In this document: piece by piece, positions 9,287-64,000 of the stretch
Numbering within the stretch: the first letter of the stretch is position 1
How the letters are laid out: each line of letters begins with the position of its first letter
Assembly: GCA_044432745.1 (NCBI GenBank)
Contig: JAWXUH010000001.1
Location: 114,760 to 178,759, forward strand
Origin: a bacterium
Lineage (GTDB): Bacteria; Bacillota_I; Bacilli_A; RF39; UBA660
DNA length: 64,000 nucleotides
Direction of reading: 5' to 3'
The notes under the pieces: generated by a model
What the model was told of the DNA's origin: nothing
What the model saw: only the letters and a program-made list of their open reading frames with translations
Databases searched by the model: none
Program-made: the position numbers and the translations under genes

Positions 9287-10537
9287 TTACATTTTTTCGT
9301 ATAAATATTCTAAAACTTCACTTTCGTCTACTTTTTCTTCTGTTTTTAATAAATTATCCTTGATTGTAACAAGACCTTTTTTTAAATCTTCATCATTTAA
9401 TAATATTAAGAAATCTGATCCTAATTTATCAGCCATTTTAAATTGAGATTTTAAACTTGCTTCATTGAAGCACATTTCACTACCAACTCCACATTCTCTT
9501 AAATTGTGAAGTAATTTTAAACCAAAAAACTTTTCTTCTGAACTAATTGCCAATATGAATGTTTCTAATTTATTTACTTCTGCTAATTCTTGTTCTTTTA
9601 TTTTAATAATTAATCTTTCAATTCCAAGGGCATATCCAGTAGCTGGCATTTGTGGTCCACCTAGATTTTCAACTAAATTGTCGTATCTACCTCCACCACC
9701 TAAAACTAGGCCATCTTCTGTAGTAAATTCATATACAAAGTCTGTATAATAATCTAATCCTCTTACTATATTAGTATCTACTATAAAATCTACTTCTAAT
9801 TCAGTTAAGTAATTTTTTAAATTATTAAATCTTATTTTAGCATTTTCACTTAGATAATCATTTATGTTTGGTAAACCTTTGAACACTTCACTATCCTTGT
9901 CTACTTTGCAATCTAATATTCTTAATGGATTATTTTCAAATCTTTTTTGACAATCACTACATAAATCATTTAAAAATGGTTTGATGTATTCTTTTAGTGC
10001 TGCTATATATTTTTCTCTTGTTTCACTATCACCTAGCGTATTAAGTCTTACAGTTGCATCTATTCTTAAGTCATTAAGTATTTTTGCTCCACTTGCTATA
10101 ACTTCAGCATCTACTAGTTCATTACTACAATTAAACACTTCTAAACCAAACTGAGTAAATTCTCTATTTCTTCCAGTTTGAGGTCTTTCATATCTATACA
10201 TTGTTCCAAAATAATACAATTTAACACTATTTGTCTCGTTTGCATAAATTTTGTTTTCTATTAAGCTTCTTACTATACTTGCTGTATTTTCTGGTCTTAA
10301 CGTTAACTTCCTATCTGATCTATCTGTAAAATCGTAAGTTTCCTTTGAAACTATATCACTTGTTTCACCTACTGATCTGTGAAATAGCTCACTTGCCTCA
10401 AATATTGGTGTACGTATATACGATGCATTCATCAATTCCATATTATTATTTATTATATTTTGTATTGTAATATATATTTTTGAATCTTCACCATAAACGT
10501 CATAACATCCTTTTGGTTTAGTTATCATAATTATCAT
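9287..10537 (-). CDS. hisS: histidine--tRNA ligase
   Basis: 416 aa class II aaRS. Motif 3 GGGGRYDNL is present, with a C-terminal anticodon-binding domain. Ends 17 nt before gatC. Confidence 0.85.
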   Translation of the reverse strand: MIIMITKPKGCYDVYGEDSKIYITIQNIINNNMELMNASYIRTPIFEASELFHRSVGETSDIVSKETYDFTDRSDRKLTLRPENTASIVRSLIENKIYANETNSVKLYYFGTMYRYERPQTGRNREFTQFGLEVFNCSNELVDAEVIASGAKILNDLRIDATVRLNTLGDSETREKYIAALKEYIKPFLNDLCSDCQKRFENNPLRILDCKVDKDSEVFKGLPNINDYLSENAKIRFNNLKNYLTELEVDFIVDTNIVRGLDYYTDFVYEFTTEDGLVLGGGGRYDNLVENLGGPQMPATGYALGIERLIIKIKEQELAEVNKLETFILAISSEEKFFGLKLLHNLRECGVGSEMCFNEASLKSQFKMADKLGSDFLILLNDEDLKKGLVTIKDNLLKTEEKVDESEVLEYLYEKM

Positions 10538-10594
10538 TTCCTTCCTTATTTAAACTATAAGTATATTACCATAAAAAAAAAGTTTTATAAAGTA

Positions 10595-10620
10595 AAAAAC
10601 TCTAAAATAGAGTTTTTTTT
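10595..10620 (-). terminator. putative stem-loop/terminator at 3' end of greA
   Basis: aaaaactcta-aaa-tagagttttt forms a 10-bp stem overlapping the greA stop codon. The T-tract is displaced by ~13 nt, so it is non-canonical. Confidence 0.3.
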
Positions 10621-11083
10621 ATGCAACTTTTGTAATTTCTACACTATATATTCCATTTGGACTTTCAATATTAACATTGTCTCCTACTTTGTGATTTAAT
10701 AATGCACTTCCTAGTGGTGATTCGTTTGATATTTTGTTATTAAATAGATCAGTTTCTACTGAACTTACTATTTTATATTCTTCTTCTTCTCCATCTTCAT
10801 ATTTTATGCCTACTATTGATCCTAGACCAACTTTACCTGTATTTTTTACTGATTTTGCAATTTCACAATGATCTAATTTATATTCTAAATCTTTTATTTT
10901 AGCTTCAATTCTAGCTTGTTCATTTCTTGCTGCATCATAATCAGCGTTTTCCGATAAATCTCCCATTGCTCTTGCTTCTTTCAATGCAATGATAACTTCA
11001 GGTCTTCTTATTGTTTTAAGTTCATTTAATTCTGCTTCAAGTTCTAAAAAACCTTCAGATGTTAATACACATTTATCTTTCAT
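10619..11083 (-). CDS. greA: transcription elongation factor GreA
   Basis: 154 aa. N-terminal coiled-coil with acidic tip (MGDLSENADYDAA), and a C-terminal FKBP-like domain. Confidence 0.85.
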   Translation of the reverse strand: MKDKCVLTSEGFLELEAELNELKTIRRPEVIIALKEARAMGDLSENADYDAARNEQARIEAKIKDLEYKLDHCEIAKSVKNTGKVGLGSIVGIKYEDGEEEEYKIVSSVETDLFNNKISNESPLGSALLNHKVGDNVNIESPNGIYSVEITKVA

Positions 11084-11124
11084 ATTAATTTTCTCCTTTT
11101 TTGGTTATATTTTATAACGATATA

Positions 11125-11153
11125 AATTTTACTACAAAATGGTTTTTATGTCA
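11125..11153 (-). promoter_or_regulatory. sigma-A-type promoter for greA (TTGACA-17-TAAAAT)
   Basis: Minus-strand reading: TTGACA, then a 17-nt spacer, then TAAAAT. It lies ~40 nt upstream of the greA RBS AAAAAAGGAGAAA. Confidence 0.45.
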
Positions 11154-11178
11154 AATTTTATTTATAACTTTATTTTAT

Positions 11179-11946
11179 TTACTTTTTTTTAGTATATAAT
11201 GTATTTTCTAATTCTTGATTAATTATATTTAATTTTTCTTCGAATTCATCTAACTTTCCTTCTACATATAATCTAATACAAATATTCATTACAACTGAAT
11301 ATAATTGCATCTTATTTCTTTCTAATATTTTTGCTATTTTTGCAATAACTTCTTTTGTAATAAGTACAGAATTATATTCAAAATCTATATGATACTTTAC
11401 TTTTGTTTCATATGCAGTTTCATTTTTATTAAAACAACTTTCGTATGTGGCATTAGTAGCATACTTTATCTCACCTAAATAAGATACTAATATTTCTGTA
11501 TTTTCTATTTCCATTTTCAATAACAATTCTTCAATTTTTTTTCTAAACTCTGTTTTTCTTGTTAAATTAATACCATGAACTTTTAATTTATCTATGTCTC
11601 CATTATAAATTGTTATGTATTTTATTGGTAAATATTTATATATTAATACAATTAATTCTTCTTCACTCATTTTTTCTTTATTTTCTTCTAATATTCTTAT
11701 TAATAAATCAAATTGTTGTTTTGTATCATCGTATCTTTCTAATACCTTTTCTTCACTCAATATTCTTATTTGCTCAGTTATCTGCGGTTCTTCAGTTTTT
11801 AAAAATCTTAACATTCCTTCAAAACTTTTCTTTGTTATATTATGTTCTTCACAAAAATCTTCAATATATAGGTAGTCTCCTTTAATATATTCTAATCCCA
11901 TTTTTTTTCTATTCAATCTTTTGATATTTTTACTATTTCCTTGCAT
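11179..11946 (-). CDS. hypothetical protein, tandem paralog 1 (all-helical; possible N-terminal HTH-like segment)
   Basis: 255 aa. Shares clear motifs with the adjacent 252-aa ORF: YLYxExFC...NI, RYDDxK, LxVLI, GINLxRKTExxxKIEELxxKMExEN, KEVI and YxEGxL. Confidence 0.5.
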   Translation of the reverse strand: MQGNSKNIKRLNRKKMGLEYIKGDYLYIEDFCEEHNITKKSFEGMLRFLKTEEPQITEQIRILSEEKVLERYDDTKQQFDLLIRILEENKEKMSEEELIVLIYKYLPIKYITIYNGDIDKLKVHGINLTRKTEFRKKIEELLLKMEIENTEILVSYLGEIKYATNATYESCFNKNETAYETKVKYHIDFEYNSVLITKEVIAKIAKILERNKMQLYSVVMNICIRLYVEGKLDEFEEKLNIINQELENTLYTKKK

Positions 11947-11966
11947 TATTTTATTTCTCTTTTCTT

Positions 11967-12725
11967 CTATCTTTCTTTACCTTGTTCATTACTTTCTATT
12001 ATAAAGAAGGTTTCTTTGTATTTTTCTAAATTTCCCTCCGCATATATATTAATCAATAATCTTACAATATATAGATTCATTGGAATTTTTGCTTCATTAC
12101 AAAAATCTAAAACATTTTTTATTACTTCCTTATTTATTAAAATATTATTTAATTCGTAATCGTAAATTAAAGAACTTATTAATAAGTGTTTATTATTTGG
12201 TTTTTCCATATTCATTCCAACTATTAACGAAGAAGTAAAGTTATTTTCGTATAAAAAATTCATTAATATAGAATAATTTTCCAATTCCATTTTTTTTACT
12301 AACTCTTCTATCTTTTCTTTTATTTCTGTTTTTCTTTCTAAATTTATTCCATATTCCTTTAATAATATAATATCTTCACAATACTTAAATACGTAATTCA
12401 TTGGCATTTTTTTTATTATCAATACCAATAACTCATTTGTAGTTAATATATCTTCTTGTTCTTTTATTATATTTATTATTTGATAAAATTTATTTTTGGC
12501 ATCATCGTATCTTGATAATATTTCTTTTCTATTTTTTTCTTCTAATGATTTTATAATGTCTGAATTTCTCTTCTTTAATGCAGATATTATTACTGACATT
12601 TTTTGTTTTTCTATATTTTTATTACAACAAAATTCTTCTAAATATAAATATTGACTATTTATATATTCTTGTATCATTTCTTCTTGTTCTTCCCTTGTTA
12701 ACTTCTGATTCATTTTTGTACTCAC
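11967..12725 (-). CDS. hypothetical protein, tandem paralog 2
   Basis: 252 aa. Paralog of the 11179..11946 ORF, separated from it by 20 nt; roughly 35-45% identity by eye. Confidence 0.5.
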   Translation of the reverse strand: MSTKMNQKLTREEQEEMIQEYINSQYLYLEEFCCNKNIEKQKMSVIISALKKRNSDIIKSLEEKNRKEILSRYDDAKNKFYQIINIIKEQEDILTTNELLVLIIKKMPMNYVFKYCEDIILLKEYGINLERKTEIKEKIEELVKKMELENYSILMNFLYENNFTSSLIVGMNMEKPNNKHLLISSLIYDYELNNILINKEVIKNVLDFCNEAKIPMNLYIVRLLINIYAEGNLEKYKETFFIIESNEQGKER

Positions 12726-12837
12726 TTCTCTTCCTTTTTAAGTATTAGTTACATTACATTACATTTTTTTATATGTCAAGTTAAAATATGTAAAGAATAT
12801 GTTAAAAAAGGGTTTTTGTTTTTTTTTACTTAATTTA

Positions 12838-12848
12838 CATGATATAAT
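12838..12848 (+). promoter_or_regulatory. extended -10 promoter (TGaTATAAT) upstream of the Hpt-REC gene
   Basis: TGATATAAT lies 24 nt upstream of the ATG, followed by the RBS AAAGGTAGGAA. The -35 element is weak. Confidence 0.3.
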
Positions 12849-12871
12849 TGTTCTAAAGGTAGGAATGAATA

Positions 12872-13618
12872 ATGAAAAATATTAATTTTTTAAAAGATCA
12901 CGGAGTTGATGTTGAAAAAAGTATCGAATTATTTGGTGATATCGAACTTTATAATAGTACTATAGAAGATTTCTTAGACGGGATAGATGTTAAAATAGAA
13001 AGACTTAAAACTTTTAAAGGTAATAGTGAAATAGCTAACTATGCTATATTTGCTCACTCTGTTAAAAGTGATGCTAGATATTTAGGTTTTGATTCAGTAG
13101 CTGCTATTGCACTAGAACATGAACTTGCAGGTAAAGATGGTAATGAAAAATTCATTAATGAAAATTACGATAATTTTTGTGAAGCAATTAATCAAATGAT
13201 TAAAGTTTCATCTGATTATTTAAATGATAATGATTGCGAAGATAATATTATTAAGAAAAACATAGTTGTAGTTGATGATGCACCTTTAATAACTAATATT
13301 GTAAAAAATTCATTAGAATCGAAATTTAATTTAGTTATTTTTAATAACTCTAAAGAAGCAGCTGATTATATACTTAATAATAAAGATAACATTGATGTGC
13401 TATTATTAGATTTAAATATGCCAGAACTTGATGGTTTTGATATTTTAAAACTTATGCATACTAATAATCTTTTCCAAAATATTAAAGTATCAATTATCAC
13501 TGGTGATGAAAGTAAAGAAACTATAGATAAGGCATTCATGTATCCTATTATAGATATGTTAAATAAACCGTTTAGTGTAGAAAATCTTAAAACTGTTATT
13601 GATAAAACATTACAATAA
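12872..13618 (+). CDS. Hpt-domain / CheY-like receiver fusion protein (phosphorelay protein without an output domain)
   Basis: 248 aa. The N-terminus carries an Hpt-like four-helix motif FAHSVKSDARYLGFDSVAAIALEHELAGK. The C-terminal REC domain has VVVDD, LLLDLNMP, SIITG and NKPF. Confidence 0.7.
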   Translation: MKNINFLKDHGVDVEKSIELFGDIELYNSTIEDFLDGIDVKIERLKTFKGNSEIANYAIFAHSVKSDARYLGFDSVAAIALEHELAGKDGNEKFINENYDNFCEAINQMIKVSSDYLNDNDCEDNIIKKNIVVVDDAPLITNIVKNSLESKFNLVIFNNSKEAADYILNNKDNIDVLLLDLNMPELDGFDILKLMHTNNLFQNIKVSIITGDESKETIDKAFMYPIIDMLNKPFSVENLKTVIDKTLQ

Positions 13619-13654
13619 AAAAAAGTAATTCTTTAAAAATATTACTTTTTTTTA
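13619..13654. terminator. bidirectional rho-independent terminator between convergent genes
   Basis: aaaaaagtaat ... attactttttt forms a perfect 11-bp stem, flanked by A/T runs on both sides. It sits between the plus-gene stop (13618) and the minus-gene stop (13652). Confidence 0.5.
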
Positions 13655-14824
13655 TTGTATAGATATTCTCATAAAATCATTTTCTTTTAATTCGAAATCT
13701 ACTTTTACTTTTATTATCATTTTAGGATGATTTGCTATTTCAATTAAATTATCATCTTTATCAAATATTTCATTTACGGTATATTCATTTATTTCAAATT
13801 TTGGATTAAAGAATTGAACTTTATCTCCTTTTTTAAAATAATTTCTTTGTTCTAATGTAACCATACCTGAATCTTTATCATATTCTTTTACTATTGCAAG
13901 AAAATCCTTATTAGTTTCTTCTGTTCTACCAAAGAAATACTGATCTGTTTCATCTGGTAAATTATTAAAAAATTGAGCTTTAGATTCTCTATTTGCTACC
14001 CTATTTAATATCTTTAAGAAATATTCTTGATCTTCTTTAGTTAATTTATTTTCACTTACTAAATCAAAGATTTTTCTATATACTCCTACTACTGTAGCTA
14101 AATAATATACAGATCTCATTCTTCCTTCTATTTTATAAGATACAACTCCTAAAGAAAACATTTCTTGAATATTTTCAATCATGTTTAAATCTTTACTCAT
14201 CATTGAAAATTCAGGATTTTCTTTATTTTTAAAACACCATCTACATACCTGTGCACATCCGCCTCTATTTGCGTCTCTAAGCGTTGTTTTATTTGATAAT
14301 AAACATTTACCCGAAAAACTTGTGCACATTGCTCCATGAACAAATACTTCTGCTTCTACTCCAGTATTTTCTATTACCCTTTTTATTTCTTCTTTGTCAC
14401 ATTCTCTTCCTAGCACGACTCTCTTAACTCCAAGAGATTGCCAGAATGCCACGTTGTATTCATTTATTGAACTAGCTTGAGTAGATAATACTATAAATAA
14501 ATCTAGTTCATTTTCTTTTATCATATCTACTACTGCTATATCACTTACTATAACACCATCTATTTTTATTTCTTCTAAATACTTTAAATATTCTAATAAA
14601 CCTTCAAAATCTTCATCATGAAATACTATATTTACTGTTATATATACTTTCTTATTAAGTGCGTGTGCAAAATCTACTGCTTCTTTTAATTCTTCTAAAG
14701 AAAAATTTGTAGCATTTGCTCTTAGAGAAAAATTTCTTCCACCTATATATACTGCATCTGCTCCATATAGCAATGCTATTTTTAATTTTTCTAGATCTTT
14801 TGCAGGTGCTAACAATTCTCTCAT
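13652..14824 (-). CDS. peptidase U32 family protein (YrrO/TrhP-like, tRNA U34 5-hydroxylation-associated)
   Basis: 390 aa. U32 N-terminal motif LEKLKIALLYGADAVYIGG. Contains the Cys-rich segment CAQVCRWC. Synteny with the B. subtilis yrrM-yrrN-yrrO cluster. Confidence 0.8.
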   Translation of the reverse strand: MRELLAPAKDLEKLKIALLYGADAVYIGGRNFSLRANATNFSLEELKEAVDFAHALNKKVYITVNIVFHDEDFEGLLEYLKYLEEIKIDGVIVSDIAVVDMIKENELDLFIVLSTQASSINEYNVAFWQSLGVKRVVLGRECDKEEIKRVIENTGVEAEVFVHGAMCTSFSGKCLLSNKTTLRDANRGGCAQVCRWCFKNKENPEFSMMSKDLNMIENIQEMFSLGVVSYKIEGRMRSVYYLATVVGVYRKIFDLVSENKLTKEDQEYFLKILNRVANRESKAQFFNNLPDETDQYFFGRTEETNKDFLAIVKEYDKDSGMVTLEQRNYFKKGDKVQFFNPKFEINEYTVNEIFDKDDNLIEIANHPKMIIKVKVDFELKENDFMRISIQ

Positions 14825-58280: not shown

Positions 58281-59232
58281 CTATCTCATCCTTTTTCGTT
58301 ATTACTTTATTCACTTTTAATAAAGCTATTCTTCCTCTTAATGTTCTTCTTATATAATTTGACTGTATTAAAAACGGTTCTATTACATCTTCAATAGTCG
58401 ATATATCTTCATTCATAACTTTACTTATTGACTCTATACCAACTGGTCCACCTTTGAAGTTTATTACTAATACCTCTAAATAAAATATATCTAGTGCATT
58501 TAATCCATTTTTATTTACTTCTAATTTTTTTAATGAATCTCTAACTAATATTGGAGTTATTTTGTTTTGATTATTTACACATGCATAATCTCTTATTCTT
58601 TTTAATAAATTATTTGCTATTCTAGGTGTTTTCCTACTACTTAAAGCTATTATTTTTTCTGCATTTTCTACTATATCAATACCTAAAACATCGCTGGTTC
58701 TTAGTATAATATTACCTAATTCGTCATTATTATAGAAATTAAATTTAAATGTAATTGCAAATCTACTTCTAAGCGGTGATGTTAAATTACCTATCTTTGT
58801 GGTAGCACCTATCAATGTAAATGGTGGTAAATCTATTTTTATAGATTTACTTTTTCCTTCATTTGAAATTATTATGTCAAACTCATAATCTTCTAATGCA
58901 GGATATAACATTTCTTCTATAAATTTAGGTATCCTATGTATTTCATCTATAAATAATATGTCACCTTCTTCCAGTGCACTTAGTACTGCCGCTAGATCTC
59001 CTATTTTTTCAAAACTAGGACCACTACAAACTTTTATATTTGTATTCATTTCATTTGCTATTATATGTGCAAGTGTTGTTTTGCCAAGACCTGGAGGTCC
59101 ATATAAAAGTATATGATCTAAACACTCATCTCTCATTTTTGCAGCTTTAATAAAGACTGATAAATTTTCCTTTATTGTATTTTGTCCTATATAATCATCA
59201 ATATTGATTGGCCTTATATTCTTATCGTTCAT
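58267..59232 (-). CDS. ruvB: Holliday junction branch migration ATPase RuvB
   Basis: 321 aa. Walker A GPPGLGKTTLA and Walker B ILFIDEIHR. Overlaps folD by 14 nt. Confidence 0.9.
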   Translation of the reverse strand: MNDKNIRPINIDDYIGQNTIKENLSVFIKAAKMRDECLDHILLYGPPGLGKTTLAHIIANEMNTNIKVCSGPSFEKIGDLAAVLSALEEGDILFIDEIHRIPKFIEEMLYPALEDYEFDIIISNEGKSKSIKIDLPPFTLIGATTKIGNLTSPLRSRFAITFKFNFYNNDELGNIILRTSDVLGIDIVENAEKIIALSSRKTPRIANNLLKRIRDYACVNNQNKITPILVRDSLKKLEVNKNGLNALDIFYLEVLVINFKGGPVGIESISKVMNEDISTIEDVIEPFLIQSNYIRRTLRGRIALLKVNKVITKKDEIDGNN

Positions 59233-59468
59233 ACACGAAAATCCTTTCTTTCAAAACCTTCCTATACTAATCAATAATATTTTCAAACCTTCAACATATT
59301 TAAATTATATACAAATAAATTAAAAGTTGCAAGCTTATCTACCATTTTTTATTTTTATTTTTTTACTACTGAATTTGTATACATTTTTTTAAAACAAATG
59401 TATCATTCTTGACATATTGTATTTTTTATGATACAATAATATCAGTTTATTATGAGGGGGAAATAATA

Positions 59469-60296
59469 ATGAATAAAAAAATAAATAAAAATTTAATTAA
59501 TGGTGTGTTACTTACTACTTGTTGTGCTACTGTTTTATCAGTATCTAAATTTAATGATTTAAAAGATACTAATATAACTACTATTAAAGACGAGTCTATT
59601 GTTACGAAAAGTAATGCTAACTTAATGTCTTTTGAACAAGAAACAATTAATGAAATAGCTAAGGTATATAATTTAGATTATAATATAGTGTATTCTATTA
59701 TAAGTAAATCTACTAATAACTTTAACGATGAAACATATATTAATAATAATATAATTCCTTTAGGATTACAGTGTAATACTTATGATTTAGGTAATAAAGC
59801 TGCTGCTATTATGGATGCAGTGAAAAATATTTATTTATATCCAGAAGCTTTTGGTTATACTTTAGAAGAAATAACTACTAAAGATAAATTTGTTAGTGAA
59901 TTATCTCAATCAGAACAAATAAAAAAATATAGTGAAATGACTAATACAGATCATTTAACTGCTCAAACTTTAACACAATATTATACTAATATTGATTCTA
60001 CTACATTTACTGAAAAAAACAATGTTCTAGGATTTGTTCAATCAGAAATTGTTGAGGATAAAAATGGAAATTTATCTTTAAGTACTGATGTTATAACTTA
60101 TCCATCAAGTGAAGCTGGTTTTATTGATTTAAGTTTATATTTACTAGAAAATAATATTAATGGGAATTATAGTTTCGAAGAATTAGAAATGAATCTTCCT
60201 ATTAACTCTAACGTTGATTTAAATTTATCACCAGTTGATGAATTAAATAATATTTATTCTGAATTAAGTGAAAAAGAAAATAATAATATTAGATAA
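59469..60296 (+). CDS. hypothetical secreted/membrane-anchored protein
   Basis: Start at the ATG (MNKKINKNLINGVLLTTCCATVLSVS) preceded by GAGGGGG; the ORF track begins at 59409. N-terminal signal/anchor; Asn/Ser/Thr-rich mature part. Confidence 0.4.
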   Translation: MNKKINKNLINGVLLTTCCATVLSVSKFNDLKDTNITTIKDESIVTKSNANLMSFEQETINEIAKVYNLDYNIVYSIISKSTNNFNDETYINNNIIPLGLQCNTYDLGNKAAAIMDAVKNIYLYPEAFGYTLEEITTKDKFVSELSQSEQIKKYSEMTNTDHLTAQTLTQYYTNIDSTTFTEKNNVLGFVQSEIVEDKNGNLSLSTDVITYPSSEAGFIDLSLYLLENNINGNYSFEELEMNLPINSNVDLNLSPVDELNNIYSELSEKENNNIR

Positions 60297-60379
60297 TAAT
60301 ATTTAAAACAAAAAAAGAATGCTACTTATAATATATAGGAAACATTCTTTTTTACTTTTTTATATTTAATAAGCAAATT

Positions 60380-60417
60380 AAAAACTGCATTCTATTATAT
60401 AGACATACAGTTTTTTT
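60380..60417. terminator. bidirectional terminator between the convergent secreted-protein gene and cotJC
   Basis: aaaaactg...(inner tctat-ata-ataga)...cagttttttt is a nested hairpin flanked by A and T tracts. Confidence 0.4.
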
Positions 60418-60425
60418 ATAATATT

Positions 60426-60983
60426 TTAATATCCCTTTGTTTTATATATATTATATAACTCTTCGAATCTATTGAAATGCACGACTTCTCTTTGTCTTAA
60501 AAATAATAATACATTTATTAGATCCTCATCTTCTGTAAGCTCAATTAAATTTTCATATGTTACTCTAGCCTTAGATTCAGCTGCCATATCTTCAACTAAA
60601 TCAGCTATAGGGTCACCTGTAACTTGAAAATATGCTGCTGTAAATGGTGAACCTGATGCATCAACCGGAAAAATACCTTTTCTATGATCTGTAAAATATC
60701 CAGAAAGTCCTGCTTCTTTTATTTCATCTTTTGTTGCTCCAGATAATAACTGATGAATCATTGTAGATATCATTTCAACATGTCCTAACTCTTCTGTTGC
60801 TATATCATTTAAAAGCGCTCTTCCTCTATCACATGGCATTGTATATTTTTGAGAAAAATATCTAAGCGCTGCTCCTAATTCTCCATTTGCTCCACCTAAC
60901 TGAGATAATAAGCATTTAGCCATATTAACATCTTTTTTCTTTATATCTACTGGAAATGATAAAATCTTTTGATATTTATACAT
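60426..60983 (-). CDS. cotJC: spore coat protein CotJC (manganese catalase family, ferritin-like)
   Basis: Start at the ATG (MYKYQKIL) with RBS GGAGGA; the ORF track extends to 61010. Mn-catalase/CotJC motifs ...ATEELGHVEMISTMI.... Confidence 0.8.
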   Translation of the reverse strand: MYKYQKILSFPVDIKKKDVNMAKCLLSQLGGANGELGAALRYFSQKYTMPCDRGRALLNDIATEELGHVEMISTMIHQLLSGATKDEIKEAGLSGYFTDHRKGIFPVDASGSPFTAAYFQVTGDPIADLVEDMAAESKARVTYENLIELTEDEDLINVLLFLRQREVVHFNRFEELYNIYKTKGY

Positions 60984-61398
60984 ATTTAGAATCCTCCTTT
61001 TCCCAAGCATTATTGCCTAACCATAAATTCTTATCAAACACATTTTCACATACCTCAAGTGGTCCATAATTTTTTACGTAATCTTCTTCACATTTTATTA
61101 ATTTATGTATATACTCTTTTAATATATTAAAAACTTTTTCATCATCAGGATGGATATCTAACCATAAATTCAAATCGTTTATAGCAAAATTCAACTCCAT
61201 TATTCTATAAAGTTTGGCATTTTTTTCACAAGTAGTTCTAGGCATCTTAGGTCTATACTCTTTATATTTTGAATATTCTTTTTCAAACATATTACCTTTC
61301 ACAAATCCAGTAGTTGAATCATACAACTCATTTGTACTTTCTTTTTCTTCACTTAATCCCATAAATGATAGAAAATTAAAATCATTTTCAAATAACAT
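60976..61398 (-). CDS. cotJB: spore coat protein CotJB with N-terminal CotJA-like segment (apparent CotJA-CotJB fusion)
   Basis: 140 aa. The C-terminal half matches CotJB (ELNFAINDLNLWLDIHPDDEKV...YGPLEV). The N-terminal part has a CotJA-like G(T/N)(L/M)F...Y..Y segment (GNMFEKEYSKYKEY). 8-nt overlap with cotJC. Confidence 0.6.
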   Translation of the reverse strand: MLFENDFNFLSFMGLSEEKESTNELYDSTTGFVKGNMFEKEYSKYKEYRPKMPRTTCEKNAKLYRIMELNFAINDLNLWLDIHPDDEKVFNILKEYIHKLIKCEEDYVKNYGPLEVCENVFDKNLWLGNNAWEKEDSKYV

Positions 61399-61418
61399 TT
61401 TTATTTCCTCCTACAAAT

Positions 61419-61455
61419 AAAGTATGTTACTAGATTTTTTAATGAAGTACTTTCA
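61419..61455 (-). promoter_or_regulatory. candidate mother-cell sporulation (sigma-E/sigma-K-type) promoter of the cotJ operon
   Basis: Minus-strand CATACTTT lies ~20 nt upstream of RBS GGAGGAA and resembles the sigma-E/K -10 CATAC/CATA---TA. An upstream TTCATTA is a weak -35-like element. Confidence 0.25.
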
Positions 61456-61533
61456 CCCATATAATAAAAATATGTTTTTTTTCTAGTTTTTTTAGTTTTT
61501 TTCTAGTATAATCATTTATAGGGTGAATTATAT

Positions 61534-63867
61534 ATGGCAAAAAAGAAAAAATCAAAAAATAGTAAAGGAGCCGTTACATACAACATTGAATTAACTGGAC
61601 TTATACTTATATTAATAGGTATTTTAGGATTTGGATTTGGTGTTGCAGGTACTTTATTTAAAAAATTCTCTTTATTTTTAGGTGGAAGTTATTGGTTTTT
61701 ATTATTAATAGCACTACTTTATATAGGTAGTTATATGTTAGTAAAAAGAAGTACTCCAGAATTTGCTTCCTCTAGATTAATAGGATTTTATATAGTGTTA
61801 GTAGTCGTACTTTCTAGTGCACACTATGAAATACTTGCTCAGGAAGTAGATGTTAATAACATATTTATGACAACTTATGATAACTATGTTAAAAGAATGA
61901 ATACAATAAATTCTAATAATGCACTAGGTTTTAGCGGTACTGGTGACATTGGTGGTGGTTTGATTGGATGTATATTTATATCAATATTTGGATTTATTGG
62001 TGGTGTTATCGGTTCTAAAATAATACTATTTATATTATTTATATTTGGTACTGTTTTATTATTTGATTTAAATATTTCTGAAATATTAGAAAACTTCTTT
62101 GTTAGACTTAAAAATACATTTGCATTCTTAAAACCAAGCGGAGAAAGTACTCGTGGTAAAGAAAAAGTTAAGGTTATTAAAAAAGAAGAAATTATTGAAG
62201 AACCTATCGAAGATGAACAAACTAATTTTGAAGAAGATTACAACGATTATCCTGCTCCTATTCCTGTTGAAGAAGTAGAAGAAAAGATTATTGTATCTTC
62301 TATTGACGATATTAAAAATCGCAAGCCAGAAGTATCTCAAATAAATGAAGCTTATGATGAAGAATCTTTTTCTTCAGAAGAAGAATATAATAATAGTGAA
62401 ATTGAACAAAAAGAAGAAGAAATTATTGATGAAACTGGATACAAACTTCCTACTGCGTCTATTTTAAATCCAGTACAAATTAAAAAAACTACATCTGCTA
62501 ACAATGCAGAAATTAATAACAAGAAAAAATTACTTAAAGGAGTATGCTCTGATTTTGGTTTAAATATAACAATTAAATCAACGAATGTTGCTCCCGCTGT
62601 TACTCAATTTGAAGTAACTGTTCCTCAAGGTACTAAAGTAAATAAAATTGTAAGTATTAATAAAGAAATAGCACTTGCTATGGCAGCAAAAGATGTTCGT
62701 ATACAAGCTCCTATTCCAGGAAAAAGTACTATAGGTATTGAAATACCAAATGATAGTATTACTGCTGTTGGATTTAGAGAAGTACTCGAAGATGAAATAG
62801 GAAAACATGATGATAAATTATTTGTAGCTTTAGGTAGAGATTTAATGGGTAAATGCGTTGTAGAAGATTTAACTAAAACTCCCCATTTACTTGTTGCAGG
62901 TTCTACTGGTTCTGGTAAATCAGTATGTATTAATACAATGATTATCTCAATACTTATGCGTTACAAACCAAGTGAAGTTAGACTTGTTATGGTGGATCCA
63001 AAAAAAGTTGAACTTACAAATTATAATGGTATTCCTCACCTACTATGTCCTGTAGTAAGTGATCCTAAAAAAGCAAGTTTAACACTTCAAAAAATAGTTT
63101 CTGAAATGGAAAAAAGATATGATACATTTAGTGATAATGTAGTTAAAAATATTAGTGGTTACAATGAAATGATTGATAAACACAATAAGAAAAATCCTGA
63201 TAATATTCAACCTAGAATGCCTTATATTCTAGTAATAATAGATGAACTTGCAGACTTGATGCTTGTTGCTTCTAAGGAAGTTGAAGATTCAATTGCTAGA
63301 ATTACACAAATGGCACGTGCTGCAGGTATACATTTAATTGTTGCAACACAAAGACCTTCTACTGATGTAATTACAGGTTTAATTAAAAATAATATACCTT
63401 CTAGAATAGCTTTCTCAGTGTCTTCTGCAATAGATTCTAGAACTATACTTGATTCATCTGGTGCAGAAAAACTACTTGGTAAAGGAGATATGCTTTATCT
63501 TCCAATGGGAGAAAGTACTTCAAGACGTGTTCAAGGATGTTTTATATCAGATGATGAAATTAAAAATGTTATTGATCACTGTAAAAATCAAATGAGTGCT
63601 AAATATGATGAAACACTTGTTTCAGCTGAACCTGTTATTAGTGCAAGTGGTACTGGTAATAGCGAAGGTGGAGATGATCCAATGTATGATGAAATTGTTG
63701 ATTTTGCTATGGAAACTGGTAAAATTAGTGCTTCTTTAATACAAAGAAGATTTAGATTTGGTTATAATAGAGCTGCAAGAATGATGGATTTATTAGAATC
63801 TAGAGGCATTGTTGGAGAACAGAACGGTTCAAAACCTCGTGAAGTAATTAAAAGAAATGAAGAATAA
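61534..63867 (+). CDS. ftsK: DNA translocase FtsK/SpoIIIE
   Basis: 777 aa. N-terminal TM helices and an acidic linker. Motor domain with Walker A GSTGSGKS and Walker B VIIDELAD. C-terminal gamma winged-helix ASLIQRRFRFGYNRAARMMD. Confidence 0.9.
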   Translation: MAKKKKSKNSKGAVTYNIELTGLILILIGILGFGFGVAGTLFKKFSLFLGGSYWFLLLIALLYIGSYMLVKRSTPEFASSRLIGFYIVLVVVLSSAHYEILAQEVDVNNIFMTTYDNYVKRMNTINSNNALGFSGTGDIGGGLIGCIFISIFGFIGGVIGSKIILFILFIFGTVLLFDLNISEILENFFVRLKNTFAFLKPSGESTRGKEKVKVIKKEEIIEEPIEDEQTNFEEDYNDYPAPIPVEEVEEKIIVSSIDDIKNRKPEVSQINEAYDEESFSSEEEYNNSEIEQKEEEIIDETGYKLPTASILNPVQIKKTTSANNAEINNKKKLLKGVCSDFGLNITIKSTNVAPAVTQFEVTVPQGTKVNKIVSINKEIALAMAAKDVRIQAPIPGKSTIGIEIPNDSITAVGFREVLEDEIGKHDDKLFVALGRDLMGKCVVEDLTKTPHLLVAGSTGSGKSVCINTMIISILMRYKPSEVRLVMVDPKKVELTNYNGIPHLLCPVVSDPKKASLTLQKIVSEMEKRYDTFSDNVVKNISGYNEMIDKHNKKNPDNIQPRMPYILVIIDELADLMLVASKEVEDSIARITQMARAAGIHLIVATQRPSTDVITGLIKNNIPSRIAFSVSSAIDSRTILDSSGAEKLLGKGDMLYLPMGESTSRRVQGCFISDDEIKNVIDHCKNQMSAKYDETLVSAEPVISASGTGNSEGGDDPMYDEIVDFAMETGKISASLIQRRFRFGYNRAARMMDLLESRGIVGEQNGSKPREVIKRNEE

Positions 63868-63949
63868 GAATTTATTTCTTTTTTTTTTGAATAACTATTC
63901 TTTATAATTAAATAATGTGATACAATTATATTGAAAGGTGAATTAATTA

Positions 63950-64000
63950 TGAATGAAAATAGTGAGACAAGAAAAATACCACCAATTAATTATTTAATAT
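63950..64000 (+). CDS. start of an unidentified CDS (truncated by window end)
   Basis: ATG preceded by AAGGTGA, with an open frame to the window edge (MNENSETRKIPPINYLI...). Confidence 0.25.

Follow-up and report, generated by a model that had tools for sequence, protein, structure and literature searches.

Tandem paralogs of a near-orphan family in a lineage-specific insertion at the U32-greA junction of an uncultured bacterium, possibly accessory DNA-binding regulators

Our analysis of a 64,000-nucleotide stretch of DNA from an uncultured bacterium (the window; contig JAWXUH010000001.1 of assembly GCA_044432745.1, positions 114,760 to 178,759 of the forward strand; GTDB lineage Bacteria; Bacillota_I; Bacilli_A; RF39; UBA660) reveals that two adjacent minus-strand genes at 11179-12725 are true tandem paralogs, that they belong to a family with almost no other members, and that they entered a conserved core-gene junction together with a divergently oriented gene for an Hpt-REC protein. 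We tentatively favor the possibility, in which we place limited confidence, that the paralogs are accessory DNA-binding regulators combining an N-terminus resembling a helix-turn-helix (HTH) with a C-terminus resembling a ribbon-helix-helix (RHH), the latter forcing dimerization, possibly as a heterodimer.

The two genes form a compact pair. Paralog 1 (11179-11946, minus strand; 255 amino acids from an ATG start; NCBI MFI3260210.1, 'hypothetical protein R3Y13_00625') is the downstream gene and paralog 2 (11967-12725, minus strand; MFI3260211.1, R3Y13_00630) the upstream one; NCBI labels both 'hypothetical protein' with the source 'MAG: bacterium', where MAG stands for metagenome-assembled genome. 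The start of paralog 2 is ambiguous: the GTG at 12725, which yields 252 amino acids, is better placed behind an AAGGAAG and gives an end-to-end alignment with paralog 1, and the public annotation (NCBI, Logan) uses the ATG at 12713, which yields 248. Each protein has a mass of about 30 kDa. The first-pass annotation described two minus-strand open reading frames (ORFs) of 255 and 252 amino acids lying 20 nt apart, and this is the arrangement we find; the 20-nt spacer (11947-11966, minus strand) contains neither promoter nor terminator, and the genes probably share one transcript. A G+C-based terminator scan detected no terminator-like site across 10400-13800.

In a composition-adjusted BLASTP comparison the paralogs align without a gap along 235 residues, 34% of them identical and 57% positive (E 5e-40), and their Smith-Waterman score of 386 stands far above the 60 +/- 10 obtained from 300 shuffles of one partner (z 33). 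The resemblance is therefore homology and not a product of K/E/I-rich composition, an objection that had been raised in advance along with the proposal of a pairwise alignment. All of the conserved blocks listed previously were recovered in the same order in both proteins (YLY.E.FC...NI, RYDD.K, L.VLI.K.P..Y, GINL.RKTE...KIEEL..KME.EN..IL, KEVI and Y.EG.L). The measured identity is a little lower than the by-eye estimate of 35-45%. The paralogs have a G+C content of 20-22%, compared with 24.5% for the Hpt-REC gene and 22-30% for neighboring genes, and their third-position G+C is similar to that of the neighbors. Judging from the length of the ORFs (about 250 codons in DNA of 20-22% G+C), the gapless alignment and the mostly synonymous changes in a distant relative described below, both are real coding genes.

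The family to which they belong is exceptionally small. An exhaustive search of 1.84 billion representative proteins with a two-paralog profile returned four sequences: paralog 1, two pieces of paralog 2 from a frameshifted assembly, and one distant relative, P0004 (373 amino acids, E 1e-10), which is extended at its N-terminus by about 130 additional amino acids and comes from the same sample series as the clone represented in the window. Word-indexed homologue searches, considered together with this profile search, yielded in total that one distant relative and the two frameshift fragments; scans by sequence pattern added no relatives from 185,579 GTDB species genomes, from IMG/VR or from JGI metagenomes, and a three-member profile found no additional copies within the window or in 93 fetched loci. 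Neither the full proteins nor their fragments matched anything above cut-off in Pfam, NCBIfam, PHROGs or PADLOC, and in PADLOC neither the paralogs nor the Hpt-REC protein had a match at E up to 1. Sequence searches of the PDB with single sequences and with profiles of the whole, N-terminal and C-terminal parts returned only noise, such as a designed miniprotein and a helix of prephenate dehydrogenase. None of the membership tests placed the paralogs in a family, and literature searches on the CD3324 family and on signaling in RF39 brought up nothing relevant. The paralogs thus belong to a near-orphan family with three members among the 1.84e9 representative proteins, which agrees with the earlier view that they are lineage-specific and of no recognizable family; no profile search placed them in a housekeeping family either. 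The exact protein sequence of paralog 1 occurs in 9 contigs of the public collection. The public contigs with both genes represent a single clone, since, one assembly apart, they show 100% identity along stretches of up to 8.5 kb.

Comparison with related organisms shows how the genes came to lie where they do. In the window, gatCAB, hisS and greA flank the genes to one side; to the other lie two U32 peptidase genes, an O-methyltransferase gene, yceG/mltG, a small ORF, ruvX and ireB. This is the Firmicute block yrzL-yrrK-yrzB-yrrL-yrrM-yrrN-yrrO-udk-greA of Bacillus subtilis; the U32 gene at the insertion is a yrrO-type U32 peptidase gene. We used GreA as a probe to collect 80 species-representative loci, which come from gut MAGs whose records are titled Bacilli, Tenericutes or Mycoplasma sp. 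CAG:776; the best GreA identity is 75%. Of the 74 loci that hold both genes, approximately 70 have 63-148 bp between the end of the second U32 gene and greA, and the closest relatives have a greA promoter (TTTGACAAAAA...TAGTAATAT) that overlaps the U32 gene at its end. The corresponding gap in the window organism is 2572 bp and contains the Hpt-REC gene and both paralogs, none of which has a tblastn match (E <= 1e-3) in any of the 80 loci. These three genes therefore constitute a lineage-specific insertion of about 2.5 kb into a conserved junction, so that the context-conservation check proposed in the first-pass annotation bears out a lineage-specific insertion shared with the Hpt-REC gene. 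As a side observation, the closest GreA relatives (68-75% identity; loci L007, L008, L009, L011, L015 and L016) are titled 'uncultured Muribaculaceae bacterium'; where their contigs reach far enough, these loci show a Firmicute-type yceG-yrrM-U32-greA block, and their taxonomy is very likely mislabelled.

The reading of the paralogs as DNA-binding regulators draws on both ends of the proteins. The most conserved block of the N-terminal part, residues 25-50 of paralog 1 (YLYIEDFCEEHNITKKSFEGMLRFLK; 11797-11874, minus strand), with the same block in paralog 2 at 12573-12650 (minus strand), has an HTH-like character. Models from AlphaFold2, which we ran with alignments of two and of three sequences, place eight helices in residues 1-160 of both proteins and leave residues 160-190, which are poorly conserved, ill-defined; the best-predicted part of paralog 1 is residues 10-70, with a predicted local distance difference test score (pLDDT) of 71-86, and its helices at 28-34 and 39-52 span YLYIEDFCEEHNITKKSFEGMLRFLK. 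The earlier prediction that both proteins are all-helical holds for residues 1-160; residues 160-195 come out as undefined or beta in these low-confidence models. When N-terminal fragments were searched, the sub-threshold matches were all to HTH families (CD3324_fam, E 0.002; Sta1, 0.007; YlxM/UPF0122, ~0.009; Lrs14, 0.04), none above its cut-off (18 bits against 65 for CD3324_fam, 16 against 80 for YlxM and 16.7 against 22.7 for UPF0122). These matches weakly support an HTH-like N-terminus, and to that extent the HTH-like spacing noted in the first pass survives. Set beside HTH proteins of the SpoIIID, YlxM and sigma-70 region 4 type, the paralogs differ in being nearly three times longer and in matching only below curated cut-offs.

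The C-terminal candidate RHH unit occupies residues 193-227 of paralog 1 (SVLITKEVIAKIAKILERNKMQLYSVVMNICIRLY; 11266-11370, minus strand), with the same block in paralog 2 at 12042-12146 (minus strand). Of the sequences used for comparison, those of Arc, Mnt and CopG were verified against the PDB, and those of a second set, composed of NikR, ParD, CcdA, FitA and MetJ, were verified as well. Aligned by hhalign with Arc, Mnt and CopG, the three-member C-terminal alignment gave a probability of 55% and a P value of 1.2e-4, with 35 columns in register across the strand and helices A and B. The score of this match, 24.5, compares with 8.3 +/- 1.6 (maximum 14.6) for 200 column shuffles and with 9-10 for every other part of the protein. 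Six residues are the same in all three members of the C-terminal alignment, and four of these (I, K, V and I) fall within the matched block. In the model of paralog 2 the region appears as a strand at 191-193 and helices at 195-207 and 214-225 (pLDDT ~60), and in that of paralog 1 as coil followed by two helices (pLDDT ~50). As read from the alignment, the likeness to the RHH repressors of the MetJ/Arc superfamily consists of these 35 C-terminal residues in register and of a matching hydrophobic core pattern. The resemblance has its limits: the RHH of Arc, CopG, NikR and ParD is N-terminal or makes up the whole protein, whereas that of the paralogs would lie at the C-terminus behind a helical region of about 190 amino acids, and Arc has a basic residue, R13, at a position where the paralog family has none.

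We therefore envisage, as a provisional model, a protein in which an N-terminal three-helix HTH-like unit and long helices (residues 1-160) would be joined by a linker (160-190) to a C-terminal strand-helix-helix resembling Arc, Mnt and CopG. RHH domains fold only as dimers, and from this it would follow that the paralogs pair, either as homodimers or as a heterodimer; such a dimer could regulate genes in an accessory role by binding DNA, perhaps at the promoter of the paralogs themselves. The divergent control region between paralog 2 and the Hpt-REC gene (12726-12871, 146 bp) contains, as read from the sequence, a TTGACA box (12779-12774, minus strand) belonging to a putative promoter of the paralog operon and an extended -10 element, TGATATAAT (12840-12848, plus strand), belonging to a putative Hpt-REC promoter. 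Three tandem TGTAA units, TGTAATGTAATGTAA (12763-12749, minus strand), overlap the spacer and -10 zone of the former and may form an operator. No motif common to the paralog promoter and the promoter of the distant relative is evident.

Several observations weigh against this model. With respect to the N-terminus, the AlphaFold2 models are poor overall (pLDDT 55 and 53), Foldseek searches of the PDB with these models found nothing, an hhalign comparison with SpoIIID was not significant (probability 0.2%), and a SpoIIID fold match was not reproduced with the model of paralog 2. Two family members out of three, paralog 2 and the distant relative, have an acidic HTH-like segment, a further departure from the SpoIIID, YlxM and sigma-70 region 4 type and an unusual property in DNA binders; the same can be said of the paralogs as a whole, which are acidic to neutral with isoelectric points of 5.3-6.1. 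With respect to the C-terminus, the RHH comparison was chosen after a likeness of SVLITKEVIAKIAKILERNKMQLYSVVMNICIRLY to Arc and CopG had been noticed by eye and was tested only then; HMMER searches of PDB and Pfam did not detect an RHH, and the Gly usual in the RHH loop is missing from the paralog family. The second RHH set gave no match in hhalign, a negative with little power because the two genuine RHH sets, compared with each other at equal depth, match only at a probability of 28% and a score of 20.4, below the 24.5 reached by the paralog family. Finally, the triple TGTAA repeat occurs once in the window, which is not rarer than expected by chance.

The alternative that competes best is that the paralogs came in as the cargo of an island, mobile or conflict-related (defense, toxin-antitoxin-like or addiction), in which they would act as regulators, as immunity components or as a new type of effector, and are not a housekeeping regulator. 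We consider this alternative, which in part coincides with the reading as DNA-binding regulators, somewhat unlikely. RHH modules are typical of antitoxins. Three other species hold unrelated cargo at the same junction, which makes the U32-greA junction an accessory-gene hotspot: a 291-amino-acid protein of unknown kind with an Amidoligase_2 protein (L030:7947-9865), a small membrane protein with an HTH_17-Fic/DOC protein (L058:8640-9880), and two small ORFs of unknown kind (L078:9197-9664), the last of which we also considered as AbiQ/ToxN-like, an assignment for which Pfam provided no support. Like known accessory, defense and toxin-antitoxin hotspots, this junction is a fixed point between core genes that is mostly empty and carries unrelated cargo in a few species; it is occupied in only 4 of about 74 species. 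The absence of the paralogs from all close relatives likewise speaks for this alternative.

The boundaries of the insertion and the variation within it bear on the same question. The 2.46-kb insertion is bounded exactly by a 20-nt imperfect direct repeat, with one copy at the right junction (11179-11198, TTACTTTTTTTTAGTATATA) and its partner at the left (13642-13661, TTACTTTTTTTTATTGTATA); the copies match at 18 of 20 positions (90% identity) and contain a T8 run on the plus strand. This AT-rich DNA has many comparably good repeats and only the position is notable, so the repeat could be an insertion scar or could have arisen by chance, and we give it little weight. The left junction is also marked by an AT-rich palindrome (13611-13659; arms of 24+24 nt, 92% complementary, 1-nt loop) between the convergent stop codons of the Hpt-REC and U32 genes, which looks like a bidirectional terminator even though the G+C-based scan did not call it. 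Within paralog 2, an A8 homopolymer (12290-12297, minus strand) reads as A9 in one assembly (SRR26879373, L087:3425), which is otherwise identical over 6.4 kb; there the gene is split into ORFs of 157 and 107 amino acids, as a result of either slipped-strand phase variation or assembly error, and such a frameshift would suit conflict cargo. Against an origin as conflict cargo, the paralogs match nothing in PADLOC or PHROGs, the 2.5 kb contain no toxin-like or enzymatic domain, no integrase and no transposase, and third-position G+C is like that of host genes. In this respect the cassette differs from known defense and toxin-antitoxin islands, as it carries neither a recombinase nor a recognizable defense gene. 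Furthermore, the distant relative (P0004, with its variant P0008) is a single gene, alone between gpsA and a ThiF-type gene.

A second alternative, which we judge unlikely, holds that the paralogs do not bind DNA and instead serve as helical adaptors or connectors for the Hpt-REC protein, which lacks an output of its own; they might, for instance, dock onto its phosphorylated receiver or modulate phosphotransfer. The Hpt-REC gene (12872-13618, plus strand; 248 amino acids; MFI3260212.1, 'response regulator') is divergent from the paralogs within the same insertion. Its receiver is secure, with a Pfam REC match at E 4e-20 and CheY-type PDB matches to residues 126-247, and on reading the sequence we find the receiver residues DD...D...S/T...K. 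The match to Hpt scores 18.7 bits (E 0.002), short of the 24.6-bit cut-off; an H-x-x-K-S motif (AHSVKSDARYLG) can be read in the sequence, and PDB sequence searches returned nothing for the N-terminal half.

The wider occurrence of the Hpt-REC protein argues against such a connection. A full-length relative, 270 amino acids long and 45% identical, is encoded on JGI contig Ga0247611_10000678 (L089:6001-6813) of a related organism (Obg 56% identical), flanked by obg and a 244-amino-acid ORF of unknown kind on one side and by yebC on the other, and no paralog relative lies within 6 kb of it. Since this relative occupies a different chromosomal site and lacks the paralogs, the Hpt-REC gene is older and wider in distribution than the paralog family. 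Conversely, no Hpt-REC gene neighbors the distant relatives P0004 and P0008. The adjacency is therefore conserved in neither direction, and any functional coupling between the paralogs and the Hpt-REC protein rests only on the 146-bp divergent control region that they share in one genome. Of the regulatory module with a phosphorelay protein suggested in the first-pass annotation, the shared lineage-specific insertion stands and the dedicated module does not. The paralogs themselves offer nothing typical of phosphotransfer: we rejected an identity as phosphotransfer proteins after finding no match to HisKA, HATPase, Hpt, REC, Spo0B or Rap-type proteins, and the residues invariant across the three family members include no His, their only acidic ones being E29 and D117.

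If, despite this, DNA binding and the phosphorelay were combined, the paralogs would found an unseen class of two-motif regulator (HTH-like and RHH) that works as a heterodimer and supplies the missing DNA-binding output of the Hpt-REC protein. We regard this combination as very unlikely; if true, it would represent a horizontally portable, self-contained cassette leading from phosphorelay to transcription in a genome-reduced uncultured gut bacterium.

It is more improbable still that the paralogs are decaying or functionless ORFs, such as remnants of an old insertion. This view could appeal to the near absence of relatives, to the frameshift at the A8 tract, and to the fact that the other assemblies derive from the same clone and hence provide no population evidence for constraint. 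Nevertheless, two intact ORFs of about 250 amino acids persist in DNA of 20-22% G+C, where stop codons are frequent, and the fact that 235 residues align without a gap at 34% identity implies that both copies have long been constrained. The distant relative points in the same direction: its gene differs between two strains (L006:2062-3183 and L088:3545-4666) at 8 positions, 5 synonymous and 3 non-synonymous, and the adjacent gpsA (966 nt) is identical between them, a pattern compatible with a protein that is under constraint and evolves faster than gpsA. The same comparison suggests, as an aside, a locally raised substitution rate or recombination at the distant relative's gene.

The weakest alternative, and one to which we give hardly any credence, is the first-pass suggestion that the paralogs are peptide-sensing quorum regulators of the RNPP/Rgg type, which they resemble in being cytoplasmic and for the most part helical, in perhaps having an N-terminal HTH, and in occurring in bacteria of low-G+C Gram-positive type: we rejected it because, at about 250 amino acids, they are smaller than RNPP proteins, they match neither HTH_3/XRE nor TPR in Pfam or NCBIfam (full proteins and fragments, E up to 10), the TPR matches in fold searches on the low-confidence models are at noise level (E > 1), and they have no adjacent peptide gene. 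The search for nearby peptide genes proposed at the outset turned up no credible signaling-peptide ORF in the intergenic region, where the only small ORF (28 amino acids; 12799-12885, plus strand) starts upstream of the -10 element of the Hpt-REC gene and shows, on reading the sequence, neither a ribosome-binding site nor a signal-peptide-like start. Whatever probability these readings leave unclaimed belongs to some other explanation.

Two observations concern the window away from this locus. The only Rfam match at gathering threshold in the window is a ribosomal protein L21 leader (RF00559; 25505-25581, minus strand; 41.7 bits). The sign of the GC skew changes between the bins 60001-62000 and 62001-64000, and long plus-strand ORFs appear from 59409, before which almost all ORFs are on the minus strand; the region from approximately 59000 to 64000 could be a replication origin or terminus.

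Orphan gene pairs are common in uncultured AT-rich MAGs, and, as a tiny family in an uncultured organism with no phenotype implied, the paralogs would otherwise be of limited importance. If our reading of them as DNA-binding regulators holds, they would represent a new architecture of bacterial DNA-binding protein, so far confined to one clone and one distant relative, which in the window organism is carried in a small cassette at a core-gene junction that is conserved among gut Bacilli with reduced genomes. Probably more useful is what the comparison of loci establishes directly, namely that the U32-greA junction is a hotspot for accessory genes in an uncultured lineage and that the insertion described here provides a clean example of orphan genes entering a rigid, reduced genome.

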